Below are positions 715 to 11,537 of a stretch of 64,000 nucleotides of DNA, one piece after another. Both the position numbers and the translations under genes were made by a program. The notes below the pieces were generated by a model. It saw nothing but the letters and a program-made list of their open reading frames with translations, was not told where the DNA came from and made no database searches. The stretch is from contig CALKBO010000028.1 of NCBI GenBank assembly GCA_937989875.1, positions 1,616 to 65,615 of the forward strand. The letters run 5' to 3'. The DNA is from an uncultured Collinsella sp. Lineage in GTDB: Bacteria; Actinomycetota; Coriobacteriia; Coriobacteriales; Coriobacteriaceae. Position 1 is the first letter of the stretch, and each line of letters starts with the position of its first letter.

Positions 715-3141
715 CTATAAATGATAATAACGATTCGCGGGTTCCCCGACGGTGAAGTTTGGATTCATATAAGGATCGCCTTTGACGTAATACTTAGCCC
801 ATCGATAATTCATGTACGCGACCTCTTTGTGGAAGCGAATCTGCTTCTCCGTATTGTTTTCAACGCCTCTAGAAATCGACTCGTAGTGATAGAGCTCGAC
901 TTCGGGTGTGTATACAATTAGGTCGTTGATCTCGCGTAGCTTTAAGCAAAAGTCAACGTCATTAAATGCAACTTGAAGCTCTTCCGTGAAACCTCCGACT
1001 TTCTCATATTCATCACGCTTGGTCATTATGCAAGCTGCGGTGACGGCGCTGAAGTCTTGTTGTGCATCGTTGAGTGCAAAGTAGCCCCAGTTATCCCTTG
1101 GCATGCTTTGGCAAAGATGTCCTGCCACGCCACCAGTGACGCATAAGCCCGCGTGCTGGATGGTGTTGTCGGGATAGTAGAGTTTTGCACCAACTGCGCC
1201 AACATCCTCACGTGCGCAGATGCCAAGCATAGTCTCAATCCAATTGGGCGTAATTACCTCAGTATCGTTATTCAACAGCAAGAGATAGTCGCCCTTGGCG
1301 TGAGCAACGCCAAAGTTCATGAGCTTGGAGAAATTGAATTCGTGCTTCCAAGTTACAAGACGAACGATGTCAGGATATTTTGCTTGCAACTTATCGTAAT
1401 AATCGAACGTCTCCTTTTCTGTGCTGTTGTTTTCGATTATGACAAGCTCGAAATTGTCGTACGTTGATTTCTCAACAATTGACTTAATGCAGTTGTCCAG
1501 AATGTTGGCGTGGTCTTTAGTTGGAATGATAATTGACACGAGTGGATGGGAATCTGGCACAGCGTAGGTTACTTTATATGTAAAGGGACGACGCGCTTGT
1601 TCGACCTTCGCATTGAGCCCAAGCCTGTCCAAATGACTCTGGACCGCTTTGATACCTGCGATAGTGGCATACGGCTTGCTATCGGCATTTGCTGCGGTGG
1701 AGGTCTCGCTTAGGCGCCAGTGATATAGAACCTTTGCAACATGATGAACTTTCCTTGCCTTTTCCACGGCGTGGAGAGTCAGATTATGATCCTGTGCTCC
1801 ATCGAACTCTTTCGTGTTCGGTTCTAGAGTGTCAAGCAGAGACTTACGGATGGTAAGCATATGGCAGATATAGTTATTGTTTCTGAGCAGATCGATATTG
1901 AAATCCGGCTTAAAGAACGGCTGCGCTAGCATTCCATCGGGCATGAGTTTATCTTCATCACAATAAAGAAGATCGACGTCATCATTGTTTTCAATTGCCT
2001 CGGCATATGAGAACAACAAGTCCGGTTCAAGAATATCGTCATGGTCAAAGAAGCTAACGAAATCACCCGAAGCGATGGCAACGCCGGCGTTTGTGTTTTC
2101 GGAAATGCCCTTATTCTCGGTAAGGTTAATTGATTTAATTCTGTTGTCGTGGGCCGTCTCCTGCTCAACGCGAGCCTTTAGTTCCTGATTGTCAGGGCTT
2201 GCATTAACTAGGAGGAGCTCCCAGTTTGCATAAGACTGGTTTTTTACGGATTCGACCATATCGTTAAAAAACGAAATGGGCGTGTTGTAAAGAGGGACAA
2301 TGATGCTGAATTTCGGAGCGCTATTGAAGACGATTTTTCTCTGCTTCTCCAGTGCACCAATGGTTGCCTTATGCTCTGTAAACCATTCGGGGTATTCAGG
2401 GTCAAACTGCGCATGGGTAAAGAGGAAGTTGGTCTCCTCAAGAAGCAAGCCTAATTTATCAGGCGTTAAGCAGTCAAATGCACTGAATGATGGGTGATTT
2501 TGATCGTCAATAATAAAATAGTAACGATCAAACGCCTTTGGCATGCGGATCGAGAGCTGCGTTTCAAGTTGCTTTTTCTCTGATGTAAATCCAACGCTCG
2601 TTACATTTGAACCGAAATTGACTATGCTCAGCCCAACCTCATTGAGGAACCGGTCGAGGCAGCGAAGTTTGATTTGCGAGTCATTGCGGTACGGTGTTCT
2701 AACCGTGCACCTCAGGATATACTCGTTTGAATCTTCGATGCACTGCCAAAAATCAATCGTCGCCATCTCAAACTCTGAAACGTCATCGTAATTTCGGAGT
2801 TTGCTGCACATGTCAGGTTTAATTTTGTAGTTAAGACGCGACTCCCATTTGATGTTCTTGCAATTGAGCGAAAGGGAGTCGCTGCTCAGGTTGCAACCGT
2901 CTTTGCCGATTTCGTTAAACTCAATTTTAATGGCTCGGGTATCGGGGTCGGGGATTACAAGAACGTATGAGTTCGATTCGCCGTTATTGTCCTTGAATTT
3001 TAGAAGAGACAAAGGTAAGCGGCGGTCGTCATCCGTTGCCGCTTGAGCTTTTATGCTGGAGCCTTCATGGATGCCTTCTATTTTAAGTTGCTGGTAGATT
3101 TTCCAGTTTCCTCTGCATACTCCGGTTGTTTCGACTCGCAT
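715..3141 (-). CDS. Large multidomain glycosyltransferase: unassigned N-terminal region of about 270 aa plus two tandem GT2 (GT-A) domains; rhamnosyltransferase-like
   Basis: 808-aa ORF. It has two GT2 N-terminal signatures, FSIIVPLYNTPISFFNDMVESVKNQSYANWELLLVN...DHDD and VSIIIPTKDHANILDNCIKSIVEKSTYDNFELVIIENNS...LLLNND. AT-rich codon usage. It is adjacent to rml genes. Confidence 0.85.
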   Translation of the reverse strand: MRVETTGVCRGNWKIYQQLKIEGIHEGSSIKAQAATDDDRRLPLSLLKFKDNNGESNSYVLVIPDPDTRAIKIEFNEIGKDGCNLSSDSLSLNCKNIKWESRLNYKIKPDMCSKLRNYDDVSEFEMATIDFWQCIEDSNEYILRCTVRTPYRNDSQIKLRCLDRFLNEVGLSIVNFGSNVTSVGFTSEKKQLETQLSIRMPKAFDRYYFIIDDQNHPSFSAFDCLTPDKLGLLLEETNFLFTHAQFDPEYPEWFTEHKATIGALEKQRKIVFNSAPKFSIIVPLYNTPISFFNDMVESVKNQSYANWELLLVNASPDNQELKARVEQETAHDNRIKSINLTENKGISENTNAGVAIASGDFVSFFDHDDILEPDLLFSYAEAIENNDDVDLLYCDEDKLMPDGMLAQPFFKPDFNIDLLRNNNYICHMLTIRKSLLDTLEPNTKEFDGAQDHNLTLHAVEKARKVHHVAKVLYHWRLSETSTAANADSKPYATIAGIKAVQSHLDRLGLNAKVEQARRPFTYKVTYAVPDSHPLVSIIIPTKDHANILDNCIKSIVEKSTYDNFELVIIENNSTEKETFDYYDKLQAKYPDIVRLVTWKHEFNFSKLMNFGVAHAKGDYLLLLNNDTEVITPNWIETMLGICAREDVGAVGAKLYYPDNTIQHAGLCVTGGVAGHLCQSMPRDNWGYFALNDAQQDFSAVTAACIMTKRDEYEKVGGFTEELQVAFNDVDFCLKLREINDLIVYTPEVELYHYESISRGVENNTEKQIRFHKEVAYMNYRWAKYYVKGDPYMNPNFTVGEPANRYYHL

Positions 3142-3355
3142 TGTTTGCCTTTCGTTTGTTGGACACTGCTCATTGTACTAATTCATTTCCTACCTCGCGA
3201 TAAATGCAGAAAGAGATGCGTGTTTCTGCTGTCCGTTTTAAAGAGAATGAGGAGGAAGCCGTTGCCGGCGCATATAATTTTAATAACTATGTTTGTCTAA
3301 TCGTTATTTGCAATTAGCAGCTTTTGCTCAACGATTGTCAACTGAGAGGAATTCT

Positions 3356-4255
3356 ATGAAAGGCATCATCCTCGCCGGCGGTTCCGGCACCCGCCTGTAC
3401 CCGCTCACGCTCGTGACCTCCAAGCAGTTGCTGCCGGTCTACGACAAGCCCATGATCTACTACCCGCTGTCCACCCTCATGCTTGCGGGCATCCGCGACA
3501 TCCTGGTCATCTCTACGCCGACGGACCTCCCCAACTTCGAGCGCCTGCTCGGGGACGGCTCGCGCTACGGCGTGAACCTCTCCTACGCCGAGCAGCCCTC
3601 GCCGGACGGCCTGGCGCAGGCGTTCACCATCGGCGAGGAGTTCATCGCCGGCGAGCCGTGCGCCCTGGTGCTGGGCGACAACATCTTCTACGGCAACGGC
3701 CTGTCGCGCCACCTGACGCGCGCCGTCCTAAACGCCGAGTCGGGCCGCGCCACGGTCTTCGGCTACCACGTCGACGACCCCGAGCGCTTCGGCGTCGTGG
3801 AGTTCGACGGGGAGGGCCGTGCCGTCTCCATCGAGGAGAAGCCAGCCGAGCCCAAGAGCTCCTACGCCGTCACCGGACTCTACTTCTACCCGGGCGACGT
3901 CGCCGCCAAGGCGCATAGGGTCGAGCCCTCCGCGCGCGGCGAGCTGGAGATCACCACGCTCAACCAGATGTACCTGGAGGAGGGGACGCTGTCCGTCGTG
4001 ACCCTGGGCCGCGGCTACGCGTGGCTGGACACCGGCACCATGGAGAGCCTGCACGAGGCCGCGGAGTTCGTCCGCGCCGTGGAGCACTCCCAGGACCTTC
4101 CCGTGTCCGTCCCCGAGGAGATAGCCTGGGAGAACGGCTGGATCACCACCGCCGAGCTGGAGGAGGCCGCGAAGGCCTACGGCAAGTCGGTCTACGGGCG
4201 GCACCTGAAGAAGGTCGCCGCCGGCGAGATCGTCAACAGCCCGCGCGAGTACTAG
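3356..4255 (+). CDS. rfbA: Glucose-1-phosphate thymidylyltransferase
   Basis: [18 protein letters not shown]...[17 protein letters not shown] is the canonical RmlA N-terminus. ATG 3356 is preceded by gagagga. The longer ORF start at 3293 is unlikely. High GC. Confidence 0.95.
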
Positions 4256-4274
4256 CGCAAGCTTGTTTTCTTTC

Positions 4275-4310
4275 AGGGGTCACCGTTTATCTGGTGGCCC
4301 CTTTCGTTAT
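4275..4310 (+). terminator. Terminator-like hairpin just downstream of rfbA, at the left edge of the AT-rich insert
   Basis: aggggtcacc-gtttatct-ggtggcccct forms a 10-bp stem with one G-U pair, followed by a T-rich stretch ttcgttat (weak U-tract). Confidence 0.4.
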
Positions 4311-4338
4311 GATTACGTTGACCATAAAGACAATATGA

Positions 4339-4788
4339 TTGGGAGTGGATGTGTTAAGCGTCTACTTTGGCGATATGCCAGAAGCGATTTACAACACAGC
4401 GACATATTTCAAAAACTCTTACCGGTCTTCTTGGATTACGGATCCCTATGCAGTCTCGATAATTAAAGATGTCGATCGATCGGTTGTTGTCTCCGAAAAC
4501 GTCATCGAAAGCCCTGTGCTTGGATCCATCTCCCCACTCCAGCTTTCTGGTGGCGTGAAAACGCTGCTGCTTATGAGATTTGATCGTAAGCATATTTTTA
4601 ACGCTTCTACCTGTGGTGACAACTGTGCCAAGTGGATTCTCGACATGGCGAAAGACCGCAAGCTCGTTGTGAATCTCTATCATGTGATGGACTTTGGTCG
4701 CGAGGATTTTAAAATTAAAGTCGTGAATAGCGGCCGAATCGTTCACAACATGGCCGATTTGATTCACGAGTCGATTCCGTATCTGTAG
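4339..4788 (+). CDS. Small protein with an ABC/SMC-type signature motif (LSGG) but no Walker A; possibly DUF4869-like. First gene of the two-gene cassette.
   Basis: 149-aa ORF. Alternative start GTG 4351 is preceded by ggag and would give MLSVYFGDMPEAIYN. The stretch LQLSGGVKTLLLMRFDRKHIFNASTCGDNCAKWILDMAKDRKLVVNLYHVMDF has the order signature / degenerate Walker B / D-loop / H-loop-like His. AT-rich. Confidence 0.6.
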   Translation: MGVDVLSVYFGDMPEAIYNTATYFKNSYRSSWITDPYAVSIIKDVDRSVVVSENVIESPVLGSISPLQLSGGVKTLLLMRFDRKHIFNASTCGDNCAKWILDMAKDRKLVVNLYHVMDFGREDFKIKVVNSGRIVHNMADLIHESIPYL

Positions 4789-5772
4789 GTGCTGCTTATG
4801 AACGGTTCGCATCTCGTTAAGATTTCCCGCCGCAGGGGAACCAAGTACACATTTACCATTAAACGGAACATTACTATTGTGCGTGGGGATAGTGGCACGG
4901 GTAAGACGACACTGTTTGACATGGTCGCAGACTACATGCGAACGGGCGAGCAGTCGGGTGTTTCCTTGCAATGCGATTGTCCCTGTGTCGCCCTGACCGA
5001 TTATGATTGGCGAAATCAGCTTTCGTCCGTTCATGACTCGATTGTATTTGTCGATGAGGGCTTAAAAGAGATCCATTCTGATGAGTTTGCCCATCATGTG
5101 CTGTATTCCTCGAATTATTTCGTGCTGATCTCAAGGGCTGATTTCCCCAATCTTCCGTATAGCGTGGATGAGATTTACAAGATTAAGACGAGCGGAAAAT
5201 ACCATTCTTTCGTCCCTGTTTATCAAGATCGCGGGAATCATCGTTATGCTATTTCCCGGTCGGCGCCAAAACAGGACTTTTCTATCCTTCTATGCGAGGA
5301 CAGTAAGTCTGGTTTCCAGTTCTTTGAACGGCATTTCGCTGACAGTGAGCTTACCTGTACTTCGGCCATGACGAACAGTGCGATTTTGGGCTGGTTGGAT
5401 CAGCATCTCGACGATCGCGTGTTTGTTGTCGCGGACGGGGCGGCATTTGGGTGCTATGCGGACCGCGTCCTTAAGCTGCAAGACATTCACCGCGATACTG
5501 TTACGGTTTGTCTTCCCGAATCATTCGAGTGGCTTCTGCTGAGCTCCGGCGTAATTTCAGGGCTAGATGTTAAGACGGTTTTGGAAACCCCAGAAGCCTT
5601 TGTAAACAGTGAGAAGTTTAAAAGCTGGGAGGATTTCTTCTATAAGTACTTACGTGAAATAACTGGGGATTCGGTTTTTCACTACGACAAAGACTGCATT
5701 TCGGAGGCGTTTTGTACAGGAGGTAATTCTGCGAAGGTTATGGCTCTTATCGCATGCCGAAATGTCCGATAG
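4789..5772 (+). CDS. Minimal P-loop ATPase fused to a Toprim/DUF4435/RloB-like C-terminal module (candidate nuclease effector). Second gene of the cassette.
   Basis: 327-aa ORF abutting the upstream stop (TAG 4786-4788, then GTG 4789 or ATG 4798). Walker A is GDSGTGKTT (nt 4885-4911). Walker B is SIVFVDEG (about nt 5038-5061). C-terminal motifs are ILLCEDSKSGFQFF, VFVVADGAAFG and LPESFEWLLL. Confidence 0.6.
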   Translation: MLLMNGSHLVKISRRRGTKYTFTIKRNITIVRGDSGTGKTTLFDMVADYMRTGEQSGVSLQCDCPCVALTDYDWRNQLSSVHDSIVFVDEGLKEIHSDEFAHHVLYSSNYFVLISRADFPNLPYSVDEIYKIKTSGKYHSFVPVYQDRGNHRYAISRSAPKQDFSILLCEDSKSGFQFFERHFADSELTCTSAMTNSAILGWLDQHLDDRVFVVADGAAFGCYADRVLKLQDIHRDTVTVCLPESFEWLLLSSGVISGLDVKTVLETPEAFVNSEKFKSWEDFFYKYLREITGDSVFHYDKDCISEAFCTGGNSAKVMALIACRNVR

Positions 5773-5781
5773 TTTTGTTGA

Positions 5782-6867
<1,086 letters not shown>

Positions 6868-6988
6868 GACCGCATCCCGGCGAACCGCACCGCGAGGCGC
6901 CCGCGCGGGGCCGCAGGGCATGGGGATGACCCTGCGTCCCCGCGCGGGCGCCCGCAACCTGAACCTCTTCGATAGGAGCTTTTCCCAT

Positions 6989-8443
6989 ATGGCAGACATC
7001 GCATTCGAGAAGGACCTCTCCGTCGCCGAGACCGGCATCGGGGGCCTGAAGGTCGTCGACCTCGCCGTCCACGGCGACTCGCGCGGCTGGTTCAAGGAGA
7101 ACTGGCAGCGCGCCAAGATGACCGCCCTGGGCATCCCGGATCTCAGGGTCGTCCAGAACAACATCTCCTACAACGACAGCCGCGGCGTCACCCGCGGCAT
7201 CCACGCCGAGCCCTGGGACAAGTTCATCTCCGTGGCCCGCGGCAGCGTATTCGGCGCATGGGTGGACCTGCGCGAGGGAAGCGCCACCTACGGGAAGGTG
7301 TTCACCTGCACGCTCGACCCGTCCAAGGCCATCTACGTCCCGCGCGGCGTGGGCAACTCCTTCCAGGCCCTGGAGGACGGCACCGCCTACACCTACCTGG
7401 TGGACGCCCACTGGTCGCTGGAGCTCAAGAGGACCTACACCTTCGTGAACCTCGCCGACCCCGAGCTCAACATTCAGTGGCCCATCCCGCTCGACCAGGC
7501 CACCGTCTCCGAGGCCGACCTCAACCACCCGATGCTCAGGGACGTCGTCCCCATGGCGCCCAAGAGGACGCTCGTCACCGGCTGCAACGGCCAGCTGGGC
7601 CACGCGGTGCGCGCGCTCGCCGAGGAGCGCGGCGTGGCCAAGGACTTCGACTTCTGCGACATCGACACCTTCGACATGTCCGACCCGGCGGCCTATTCGC
7701 AGTACGACTGGTCGCTCTACGGCACCGTGATCAACTGCGGCGCCTACACGGCCGTGGACAGGGCGGAGACCCCCGAGGGCCGCGTGACCGCCTGGAAGGC
7801 CAACGCGACCGGCCCTGCCCTTCTCGCACGCACCTGCGCCGGGCACGGCATCACGCTCGTCCACGTGTCCTCCGACTACGTCTTCGACGGCACCGCCGAG
7901 GTCCATGACGAGGACGAGCCGTTCTCCCCGCTGTCCGTATACGGCCAGACCAAGGCCGCCGGCGACATCGCCGTGGCCGGGTGCCCGCGCCACTACGTCA
8001 TGCGCAGCTCCTGGGTCATCGGCGAGGGGCACAACTTCGTCAAGACCATGAAGGGGCTGTCCGACCGCGTAGCCGACCCGGAGGACGGGCTCACGCAGGT
8101 CACGGTTGTCGACGACCAGCTGGGCCGCCTGACCTTCACGCGCGATATGGCCGAGGCCATCTTCCACGTGCTGGGGACGCACGCCCCCTACGGCACCTAT
8201 AACTGCACGGGCTCCGGCGCCGTGAAGTCCTGGGCGGACATCGCCCGCGCCGTCTTCGAGTCCGCCAACGGCAACGGGGACAAGGTCGTGCCCGTGAGCA
8301 CTGCCGACTACTACGCGAGCGCAGCCGGCCCCGTCGCCCCGCGCCCGGTCCACTCCGCTCTCGACCTTTCCAGGCTCGAGTCGGTCGGGTTCCACATGCC
8401 CGACTGGGAGGAAGAGCTGGGGGAGTACCTCAAGACGCTCTAG
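6989..8443 (+). CDS. Bifunctional dTDP-4-dehydrorhamnose 3,5-epimerase / dTDP-4-dehydrorhamnose reductase (RmlC-RmlD fusion)
   Basis: The N-terminal half has cupin motifs (DSRGWFKENW, RGIHAEPWDKF). The C-terminal half is RmlD-like (LVTGCNGQLG, SSDYVFDG, YGQTKAAGD). ATG 6989 is preceded by taggag, so the longer 6920 start is unlikely. Confidence 0.9.
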   Translation: MADIAFEKDLSVAETGIGGLKVVDLAVHGDSRGWFKENWQRAKMTALGIPDLRVVQNNISYNDSRGVTRGIHAEPWDKFISVARGSVFGAWVDLREGSATYGKVFTCTLDPSKAIYVPRGVGNSFQALEDGTAYTYLVDAHWSLELKRTYTFVNLADPELNIQWPIPLDQATVSEADLNHPMLRDVVPMAPKRTLVTGCNGQLGHAVRALAEERGVAKDFDFCDIDTFDMSDPAAYSQYDWSLYGTVINCGAYTAVDRAETPEGRVTAWKANATGPALLARTCAGHGITLVHVSSDYVFDGTAEVHDEDEPFSPLSVYGQTKAAGDIAVAGCPRHYVMRSSWVIGEGHNFVKTMKGLSDRVADPEDGLTQVTVVDDQLGRLTFTRDMAEAIFHVLGTHAPYGTYNCTGSGAVKSWADIARAVFESANGNGDKVVPVSTADYYASAAGPVAPRPVHSALDLSRLESVGFHMPDWEEELGEYLKTL

Positions 8444-11302: not shown

Positions 11303-11356
11303 GTTATAATTACTTGCGCCTGACAGGCTTGCGCTTGCTTGGGCGTGCGGCTATTT

Positions 11357-11433
11357 GCTCCATTAGCTCAGTTGGATAGAGCAGGGGACTTCTAATCCCA
11401 AGGTCGACGGTTCGAATCCGCCATGGAGCACCA
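11357..11433 (+). tRNA. tRNA-Arg (anticodon TCT), CCA encoded
   Basis: Hand-folded cloverleaf: acceptor GCTCCAT/ATGGAGC, D arm GCTC-AGTTGGATA-GAGC, anticodon loop CTTCTAA, T loop TTCGAAT. It closely resembles E. coli argU in the D arm and anticodon loop. It has one mismatch each in the anticodon stem (G27-A43) and the T stem (A50-C64). Confidence 0.85.
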
Positions 11434-11443
11434 TCGTTTATTA

Positions 11444-11476
11444 AGCCCAGACCGCTTGGTGGTCTGGGCTTTTTTC
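11444..11476 (+). terminator. Intrinsic terminator after tRNA-Arg(TCT); may also serve the convergent aroQ
   Basis: agcccagacc-gcttggt-ggtctgggct followed by tttttc. Confidence 0.75.
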
Positions 11477-11537
11477 ATCTTGTGTGCTGCTGGAGCCGAG
11501 CGCGAGCAAGCCGCTGCTGTTTGTTGGGGTTGGCATT

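Follow-up and report, generated by a model that had tools for sequence, protein, structure and literature searches.

In this study, two small open reading frames (ORFs), ORF-A and ORF-B, were analysed that lie between the dTDP-rhamnose genes rmlA and rmlB of an uncultured Collinsella sp., within a stretch of 64,000 nucleotides (nt) of GenBank assembly GCA_937989875.1 (contig CALKBO010000028.1, positions 1,616 to 65,615; hereafter the window). We read the inserted DNA at 4256-5847, with a probability of about one half, as a horizontally acquired, self-contained two-gene conflict module, most likely a defence against phages or mobile elements, of the type in which an ATPase controls an effector. 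Four lines of evidence are considered in turn, namely the foreign composition and patchy occurrence of the insert, the strict pairing of its two genes, their predicted architecture and their genomic neighbours elsewhere, and the rival explanations are weighed along with them.

On the + strand of the window, rmlA is followed by the two co-directional ORFs, by rmlB and by a fused rmlC-rmlD gene (6920-8443). The ORFs occupy 4339-4788 and 4789-5772, the first ending in TAG at 4786-4788, after which GTG 4789 and ATG 4798 are available as starts; these coordinates were reproduced exactly as a preliminary description of the same DNA, made from its letters alone, had given them. The existence of both ORFs was thereby confirmed, and their sizes (149 and 327 aa) had to be corrected: nearly all ORF-A homologues are 145 aa and nearly all ORF-B homologues 324 aa long, so the starts are placed at GTG 4351, just behind GGGAG, and at ATG 4798. 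Residues are numbered below on the 324-aa protein unless stated otherwise. In a 300-nt profile, G+C is 0.69-0.70 in rmlA, 0.45-0.49 over the cassette and 0.64-0.70 in rmlB, with about 0.61 for the bulk of the window, and the earlier comparison of single 60-nt stretches (24/60 G+C at 4381-4440 versus 44/60 at 3601-3660) was likewise reproduced. The cassette ORFs have a G+C content of 0.45-0.48 versus 0.66-0.68 in the flanking genes, and G+C at third codon positions (GC3) is 0.52 for ORF-A and ORF-B versus 0.96 for rmlA and rmlB. Judged by base composition, the cassette is foreign to the operon and horizontally acquired.

The occurrence of the pair in relatives was examined in two samples. In a first scan of Collinsella genomes, the pair stood between rmlA and rmlB in 80/80 loci and was taken to be fixed; these loci had been retrieved through ORF-B and hence selected for it, and a metagenome scan seeded with RmlB, which is an unbiased sample in this respect, overturned that view. 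Among the closest relatives in the latter scan, about nine sites were filled, at least nine were empty and three held other cargo. At the empty sites, rmlA and rmlB are 92-99% and 95-97% identical to those of the window and only 13-27 nt apart from stop codon to ATG. The rmlA genes of Collinsella loci are 92-99% identical with or without the cassette, and the N-terminus of RmlB reads MSEIFEPK in filled alleles and MSEELFEPK in most empty ones. The other cargo comprised a gene for a 328-aa FRG-domain protein matching PADLOC PDC-S15 at E = 1.5e-10 (locus L122, 1033-2019), a DUF6718 gene with a 61-aa and a 198-aa ORF that match nothing in Pfam or PADLOC (L113, 4810-5980), and an 82-aa ORF with DUF6718 (L133, 5473-5988). 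Because empty, pair-filled and otherwise filled alleles occur among relatives, the rmlA-rmlB junction is a swap-in/swap-out slot, and the pair is not a constant native part of rml operons once loci are sampled without bias. DUF6718, which is itself uncharacterised, recurs as cargo of this slot. One cassette-bearing metagenome locus (L104, 5318-5803), in which the tblastn match covers only half of ORF-B, may be a decaying copy.

Inverted repeats, target duplications, an integrase and conserved cassette ends were sought at the insert and not found; the simplest mechanism of exchange is homologous recombination in the flanking genes. Across 46 Collinsella loci, synonymous divergence (dS) was 0.035 for ORF-A and 0.052 for ORF-B versus 0.158 for rmlA and 0.209 for rmlB; it was 3-4 times lower in the cassette than in the flanks, and below that of rmlB in 99% of locus pairs, which is consistent with a recent spread. 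The ratio of nonsynonymous to synonymous divergence (dN/dS) of ORF-B was 0.09, so ORF-B is under purifying selection and functional.

In the Coriobacteriia more widely, the pair recurs at the edges of rml and cell-wall glycan loci. Three subtypes occupy three junctions, that is, between rmlA and rmlB (the window), after rmlB (L128, 71/57% identity) and before rmlA (L185, 74/60%); two more contexts lie at the edge of glycan loci. Where RmlB differs by 8-10%, the difference in ORF-B amounts to 40%, although ORF-B is the slower gene within Collinsella, and the pairs at different rml junctions are therefore independent acquisitions. Our working explanation for this recurrence is that very conserved genes serve well as homology arms between species, and a functional link of the pair to a polysaccharide that acts as phage receptor may also exist.

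Two rival explanations are touched by these observations. A role of the pair in the biosynthesis of rhamnose or cell-wall polysaccharide, or in its regulation, would account for its place in the 80 loci retrieved through ORF-B and for the related pairs at glycan-locus edges; it is largely refuted and very improbable, given the empty and otherwise filled sites in equally close relatives of the RmlB-seeded sample, the contexts that contain no glycan genes, the foreign composition and the lack of any sugar-related domain. The preliminary description, which saw no tie to sugar chemistry, is upheld by a site that is empty in close relatives and holds other cargo in some. Alternatively, the cassette might be a selfish homing-like element, with ORF-B as a nuclease that cuts cassette-free alleles and repair that copies the cassette in. 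Insertion between very conserved genes (rmlA-rmlB, asp23-nusB) without integrase, repeats or target duplication, the low dS of the cassette, as recent horizontal sweeps predict, and the three subtypes at three junctions beside rml genes all agree with homing. However, unrelated cargo uses the same slot, which therefore appears to be a general recombination hot spot and not the product of cassette-driven homing; the contexts of the pair are very diverse and share no target sequence, ORF-B matches no nuclease family, and a two-protein, ATP-dependent machine is atypical of homing endonucleases. We consider homing quite improbable.

The second line of evidence is the pairing of the two genes. ORF-A stands directly upstream in 119 of the 122 ORF-B copies in all loci fetched, so that the two ORFs, described from the outset as one unit, are indeed co-conserved. 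Two of the three exceptions lie at contig edges, and in the third, on a Ruminococcus albus megaplasmid, IS21 parts ORF-B from a truncated ORF-A. The R. albus ORF-B homologue (L089, 12121-12996, NC_014825.1) is named 'translation initiation factor 2' by RefSeq, apparently a misannotation. In many lineages the stop codon of ORF-A overlaps the ribosome-binding site of ORF-B (TAGGAG or TAGGGG, 5-9 nt ahead of the ATG), and in some the two ORFs overlap; the genes are translationally coupled and nearly always together. They share one reading frame in the window, with TAG and three codons between them. Read-through of the stop codon from ORF-A into ORF-B was considered and rejected as unlikely, because other lineages do not keep this frame relation, which differs, for example, in L001.

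The family is large. An exhaustive HMMER search with ORF-B returned 2,045 clusters (50% identity), 1,151 of them with E-values of 1e-10 or lower, and nearly all full-length members have 305-350 aa. At 90% clustering there are 3,431 relatives, and one such cluster alone holds 10,884 sequences. When one genome per species was scanned by pattern, 413 stretches encoding an ORF-B relative came up; the best 80 all belong to Collinsella, C. aerofaciens ATCC 25986 among them, and have 98-100% protein identity. Given the DUF4869 match of ORF-A (see below), the 3,431 relatives and the purifying selection on ORF-B, the pair is not a chance finding. At one contig end (L193, 115-2013), a DUF4869 gene, the ATPase gene and a second DUF4869 gene follow each other in tandem (A-B-A), which suggests arrays of pairs.

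The architecture of ORF-B was predicted with AlphaFold2 (AF2). The model has a mean predicted local distance difference test (pLDDT) value of 93.6 and two domains, in agreement with the earlier view of a minimal P-loop NTPase fused to a C-terminal module, which the invariant residues and the Foldseek matches also bear out. The motifs GDSGTGKTT (Walker A) and SIVFVDEG (Walker B), at residues 33 and 84 in 327-aa numbering, as well as ILLCEDSKSGFQFF, VFVVADGAAFG and LPESFEWLLL in ORF-B and LSGG in ORF-A, are all where they had been reported, and K39 and E170, given correctly for the 327-aa protein, correspond to K36 and E167 here. In an alignment of 98 sequences with 29-60% identity, S32, G35, K36 and E87 are invariant, as is R113 of the N-terminal domain. 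AAA_29, AAA_23, ABC_tran and SMC_N are matched partially and below threshold, over a strand or β-hairpin plus the P-loop, in 14-79 of the 98 members. Foldseek matched ORF-B to the MutS ATPase domain with a probability of 0.96-0.97 in the Protein Data Bank (PDB) and to a viral ATP-binding cassette (ABC) protein with 0.99 in BFVD, and hhalign aligned it to the ABC transporter ATPase of the window itself at E = 5.5e-5. No LSGG-like motif was present in the alignment of this domain and no helical subdomain in the model, in which about 25 residues with one short helix separate the strands after the P-loop from Walker B. On sequence and model, residues 1-141 are predicted to be a minimal ABC-class P-loop ATPase domain without a signature motif. 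Searches with ORF-B in Pfam, NCBIfam, PHROGs and PADLOC gave P-loop noise only (in PADLOC, matches of P-loop length, with LmuB as the best at 6.7e-5, residues 12-46), and searches of PDB sequences with both proteins, as single sequences and four profiles, returned nothing beyond P-loops. B-like proteins of 489-509 aa (P0358, P0368) were considered as alternative effector fusions, but as the two diverge after an identical N-terminus of 195 aa, they are taken to be disrupted genes and were rejected.

ORF-A belongs to Pfam DUF4869 (PF16163), as the preliminary description had proposed to check, with E = 9.4e-57 and 190.8 bits against a cut-off of 28.9, over model positions 1-126 of 128, and all ORF-A homologues listed carry the same domain. 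It matched nothing in NCBIfam, 0 families in PADLOC and, in PHROGs, two families of unknown function at chance level (E 0.04 and 0.26). No papers that mention DUF4869, PF16163 or the RefSeq accessions were found in the searchable literature library. The AF2 model of ORF-A has a pLDDT of 92.3, and the 50 best PDB matches listed by Foldseek are all ABC-class ATPase domains; they are weak (E 0.01-0.09, template modelling score, TMq, 0.25-0.46) and include nucleotide-binding domains (NBDs) of ABC transporters and ABCE1, Septu PtuA, an SMC head and PARIS AriA. An ABC signature was defined as LSGG at the N-terminus of a helix about 20 residues ahead of the Walker-B strand, with a D-loop and a switch His further on. 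In ORF-A, LSGG (residues 65-68) opens helix 67-77, the strand at the Walker-B position (82-84) reads IFNAS with FN.S invariant, and CGDN at 88-91 and His111 take the D-loop and switch positions, so that the motifs are ordered and spaced as in the C-terminal half of an ABC domain; the ABC ATPase of the window has FSSGM...ILIVDE...SVGD...SH for comparison. L65, S66, G68, K70, F83, N84, S86, C88, G89 and N91 are invariant, and H111 nearly so, among members 44-75% identical to the window protein. ORF-A has neither a GxxxxGK[ST] P-loop nor an acidic Walker B, so that the earlier remark on an LSGG protein without a P-loop was right, with the LSGG conserved and the modelled fold weakly ABC-like. From the model, ORF-A looks like an ABC-type NBD that has no P-loop. 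A direct hhalign comparison of ORF-A with ORF-B was negative.

The C-terminal domain of ORF-B consists, in the AF2 model, of four β-α units followed by a helical bundle, with strands at 163-166, 186-189, 208-211 and 235-238. Its conserved residues lie at the C-terminal end of each of strands 1-4: E167/D168 come after strand 1, D213 after strand 3 and E241/E244 after strand 4, with E278 in addition. D168, D213, E244 and E278 are invariant among the 98 sequences, and E167, G192 and E241 nearly so. A Toprim domain was taken to require a four-stranded β-α-β core with a conserved Glu after strand 1 and one or more Asp after strand 3. ORF-B has a single Asp (D213) in place of the Toprim DxD, and its acids are spaced as E/D, then D about 46 residues on and E about 28 residues further. 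The TOPRIM acids of AriB are E26/D30, D88/E90 and E122 (PMC11464382). What survives of the Toprim idea is thus a resemblance in topology and acidic residues, with an order and spacing that appear to parallel the AriB set. We describe the domain as a putative metal-dependent nuclease-like domain, with no family assigned, and presume it to be the effector.

In ABC-class ATPases, the signature motif completes the ATP site from the partner subunit. We propose that ORF-B would bind and hydrolyse ATP through K36 of Walker A and E87 of Walker B, having no signature of its own, and that ORF-A, having lost the P-loop and the Walker B acids, would supply LSGG, the D-loop-like motif and the switch His. 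Docked head-to-tail on ORF-B, it would form one composite ATP site from the Walker motifs of B and the signature of A. A nucleotide state changed by an infection cue might then free or activate the C-terminal α/β domain, in which E167/D168, D213, E241/E244 and E278 may bind metal ions and cut nucleic acid, and the infected cell would be arrested or the invader destroyed. The module itself would spread by homologous recombination through conserved flanking genes and not by an integrase. Asymmetric ABC dimers such as TM287/288 and NBD1/NBD2 of CFTR have one degenerate ATP site, and both of their subunits keep the P-loop. The inferred A-B dimer would be like them in having one catalytic composite site, made of Walker A/B of one subunit and LSGG of the other, and a second site that does not function; it would be unlike them in that the degenerate subunit has no P-loop and the catalytic one lacks the whole signature-bearing helical subdomain. 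ATPases are known to gate effectors in OLD, Gabija, PARIS and Septu (PMC10568477, PMC11464382, PMC13064643).

Several known systems were compared with the pair. Like PARIS, it has two adjacent genes, an ABC-class ATPase, an α/β domain with acids at the strand ends and a life as hot-spot cargo, and AriA is among the fold matches of ORF-A. Unlike PARIS, where AriA is a complete ABC ATPase of about 55 kDa and AriB (DUF4435 TOPRIM) a separate nuclease, the P-loop and the putative effector are joined here in one 324-aa protein, and the signature half is a separate 145-aa protein without a P-loop. The PADLOC AriA model matched ORF-B at the P-loop only (E = 0.0081, residues 21-53), and the 33 C-terminal domains searched at E up to 10 gave no match to AriB/DUF4435. 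OLD and GajA carry, as ORF-B does, an ATPase and a (here putative) metal-binding α/β domain in one polypeptide and in the same N-to-C order, and E ... G-K ... D of ORF-B resembles LLVEG ... GK ... DxD of P2 Old, TsOLD and GajA; however, OLD proteins have 520-680 aa, and their ATPase contains a signature region and a dimerisation insert, both missing from ORF-B. Toprim_OLD gave no hit for ORF-B, and AAA_15 was matched in 14/98 members at the P-loop only. AbiL has been grouped with PARIS for its two-gene logic of an ATPase and a Toprim-like protein (PMC13064643). The pair shares this logic with AbiL/RloAB and differs in how the domains are split between the two proteins; none of the 33 C-terminal domains matched Pfam RloB, DUF4276 or PADLOC AbiL, with E-values up to 10 admitted. 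The RloB motifs, which we take to be EG..TE..YF and FE.W.LLH, resemble TEDS.SGY.FF and PESFEWLLL of ORF-B, which is a lead and not a test. Septu PtuA, finally, ranks high among the fold matches of ORF-A, with a probability of up to 0.84, and PtuA models give P-loop-level matches to ORF-B, yet PtuA is a complete ABC ATPase working with an HNH nuclease, whereas the pair has no HNH domain and a split ATPase. We give even odds that the pair belongs to the known type of ATPase plus nuclease-like conflict module and forms a new module within it.

The fourth line of evidence is the genomic setting in other lineages. The pair was found immediately after the genes of a type I restriction R subunit (HsdR) and a GmrSD enzyme (L094); 2.5 kb from Cas3, with an adjoining gene that matches the PADLOC Cas8e models (L197); after an AIPR gene and IS3 remnants, directly upstream of rmlA (L185-187); between glycan genes and a YafQ toxin (L188); flanked by an XRE-GNAT pair and a Fic protein (L194); at the endolysin and integrase ends of prophages (L092, L093); and near a TraG gene (L007). 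Its G+C is below that of the surroundings in most loci. When the 143 ORFs located up to 6 kb from the pair in 17 contexts were scanned, PADLOC matched Cas3e, Cas8e, AbiU, REase_I, Orf5 and PDC-M10A/B, as well as SoFic, HEC-06, mad3/mad8 and PDC-M03A. The support for a defence function comes from this context, and it leaves that function as probable as its absence. The Cas3-bearing contig (L197, GenBank MT835722, 'Bacteriophage sp.'), whose Cas3 matches a solved Cas3 structure at E = 1.8e-104, was deposited as phage and is probably bacterial chromosomal DNA. A gene for a 362-aa AAA_22/AAA_16 ATPase just upstream of the pair (L001, 8312-9400; L001-L006, L095-L097), missing in L182-L184, is another small presence/absence polymorphism beside it.

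The neighbouring YafQ, Fic and GNAT/XRE modules would also suit a toxin-antitoxin-like addiction module, in which ORF-B would be a growth-arresting ATPase or nuclease and ORF-A its neutraliser, kept because loss is costly. Small size of the upstream gene, tight coupling, strict pairing and insertion of a minimal two-gene unit in housekeeping operons without mobility genes would be expected of such a module, and PARIS itself acts as a type II toxin-antitoxin pair (PMC13064643). However, precise empty sites are common in close relatives, so loss is tolerated, and ORF-A is more conserved across lineages (70-97% identity to the window protein in the listed hits) than ORF-B (56-66% in most of its listed hits), which is unusual for a labile antitoxin. 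We regard addiction as unlikely, and it is not mutually exclusive with defence. A housekeeping factor for DNA transactions, with a RecF/RecR-like or MutS-like ATPase and a DNA-binding α/β domain, has on its side that MutS ATPase domains are the best Foldseek matches of ORF-B, that one or two C-terminal domains gave weak DprA hits and that the pair adjoins housekeeping genes in some genomes. All of these matches are weak, however, and the pair is patchy, polymorphic, compositionally foreign and missing from close relatives, with more than one pair per locus possible and tandem A-B-A arrays; such a housekeeping role is improbable.

A number of results weigh against the reading of the pair as a defence module. 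The pair has no match to any named defence family in PADLOC-DB v2 beyond P-loop noise, in line with the preliminary description, which could assign it to none. Few phages or plasmids in the collections searched carry the pair: it was found in 5 of 50,697 phage records, in 3 of 72,556 plasmids and in 3 loci of IMG/VR. Some of its settings are of a housekeeping kind, such as asp23-nusB (L100) and, in Agathobacter rectalis, azlC-glycerate kinase (L090). The defence genes near the pair are suggestive, as a tally without a matched control and not a measured enrichment. For ORF-A, the ABC relationship was not seen by hhalign against an ABC NBD or by a hidden Markov model search of the PDB, and its looking like an ABC domain is a matter of the modelled fold, with low TM-scores.

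The same applies to the effector, for which it is the modelled topology and the conserved acids that suggest a putative nuclease. The C-terminal module had been placed in the DUF4435/DUF4276/RloB class, with Toprim_OLD as a further candidate. This placement did not hold: membership of DUF4435, DUF4276, RloB or OLD was tested and found no support at the sensitivity available, with no hit in Pfam, NCBIfam, PADLOC or the PDB. Member by member, 98 full-length and 33 C-terminal sequences were scanned in Pfam, PADLOC and NCBIfam, and the 33 diverse C-terminal domains, taken one by one at E up to 10, gave scattered chance hits, among them the weak DprA hits, and no nuclease or Toprim family. A PDB profile search with the C-terminal domain returned nothing relevant. 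Foldseek of the ORF-B model against PDB and BFVD gave ATPase-domain matches and low-TM noise with no Toprim match, and no OLD or GajA structure is among the 50 best PDB matches listed; the closest small α/β matches of the C-terminal domain are EIIA-Man domains of the phosphotransferase system (PTS), and two giant-virus entries in BFVD annotated 'ATP-dependent endonuclease' have TM-scores of 0.14-0.16 at a root-mean-square deviation of 18-23 Å. With hhalign, ORF-B against P2 Old reached a probability of 30%, driven by Walker B and with a doubtful register in the Toprim part; the C-terminal domain alone reached 0.7%, and a mini-profile of Old, TsOLD and GajA gave 0.8%, so the P2 Old signal was not reproduced.

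The features of the slot and its cargo in the window are collected in Table 1. The hairpin listed there lies directly after rmlA and has an 11-bp G+C-rich stem followed by TTTCGTT; since the whole 4256-4350 stretch is missing at empty sites, it comes in with the cassette, and where the cassette is present, this hairpin could uncouple rmlB from the promoter of rmlA. Scans for Rfam families, tRNAs and tandem repeats gave no hit within the cassette, opposite which lies a long antisense ORF (4354-5034).

Table 1. Coordinates of the rmlA-rmlB slot and of the two-gene cassette in the window (positions in nt)
Feature	Position	Strand	Details
rmlA, glucose-1-phosphate thymidylyltransferase, left flank of slot	3293..4255	+	likely start ATG 3356; GC 0.68, GC3 0.96
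Inserted DNA, left end	4256..4350	+	terminator-like hairpin 4275-4302 and ribosome-binding site GGGAG ahead of ORF-A
ORF-A, 145 aa, Pfam DUF4869	4351..4788	+	LSGG at nt 4543-4554
ORF-B, N-terminal domain, aa 1-141	4798..5220	+	Walker A nt 4885-4911, Walker B nt 5038-5061
ORF-B, C-terminal domain, aa 155-324	5260..5772	+	E167/D168 nt 5296-5301, D213 nt 5434-5436, E241/E244 nt 5518-5529
Inserted DNA, right end, ORF-B stop to rmlB start	5773..5847	+	missing at empty sites
rmlB, dTDP-glucose 4,6-dehydratase, right flank of slot	5848..6867	+	first ~40 nt AT-richer than remainder

Further observations concern the surroundings of the cassette. The rmlC and rmlD genes form one fused 507-aa ORF (6920-8443), a fusion kept in the Collinsella loci. 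Upstream of rmlA, an 808-aa ORF on the minus strand (715-3141, G+C about 0.45), which from its sequence is a candidate double glycosyltransferase, is swapped in some Collinsella loci for variants only 30-54% identical, and the glycan gene content beside the rml genes therefore varies between strains. A second slot lies at 11303-11537 of the window, between the ATPase gene of a glycan ABC transporter with tRNA-Arg TCT (11357-11433) on one side and aroQ on the other. It is empty in the window; in other loci (L010, 16640-18540; L011-L013, L040, L045 and L085), it holds a divergent A-B pair on the minus strand with 51% and 39% identity, again without an integrase.

Beyond the window, it is a tentative suggestion that the pair founds a widespread conflict family, in which a split ABC ATPase with its signature given in trans gates an unclassified, metal-dependent nuclease-like domain, and which spreads from one gut species to another via homology arms of the rmlA/rmlB kind and may be tied to phage-receptor loci. 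If true, a function would be provided for a gene pair that is very common in Actinobacteria and Firmicutes of the human gut, and a Pfam domain of unknown function, DUF4869, would be explained. A new way to build an ABC-type switch from two incomplete halves would also be revealed, which bears on the evolution and mechanism of ATPase-plus-nuclease defence as in OLD, Gabija, PARIS, AbiL and Septu. For Collinsella itself, the expression of rmlB may be affected by the insertion through the hairpin brought in after rmlA, and the rmlA-rmlB and tRNA-Arg slots offer natural strains that differ only by slot cargo, thereby allowing a direct comparison of their phage sensitivity.

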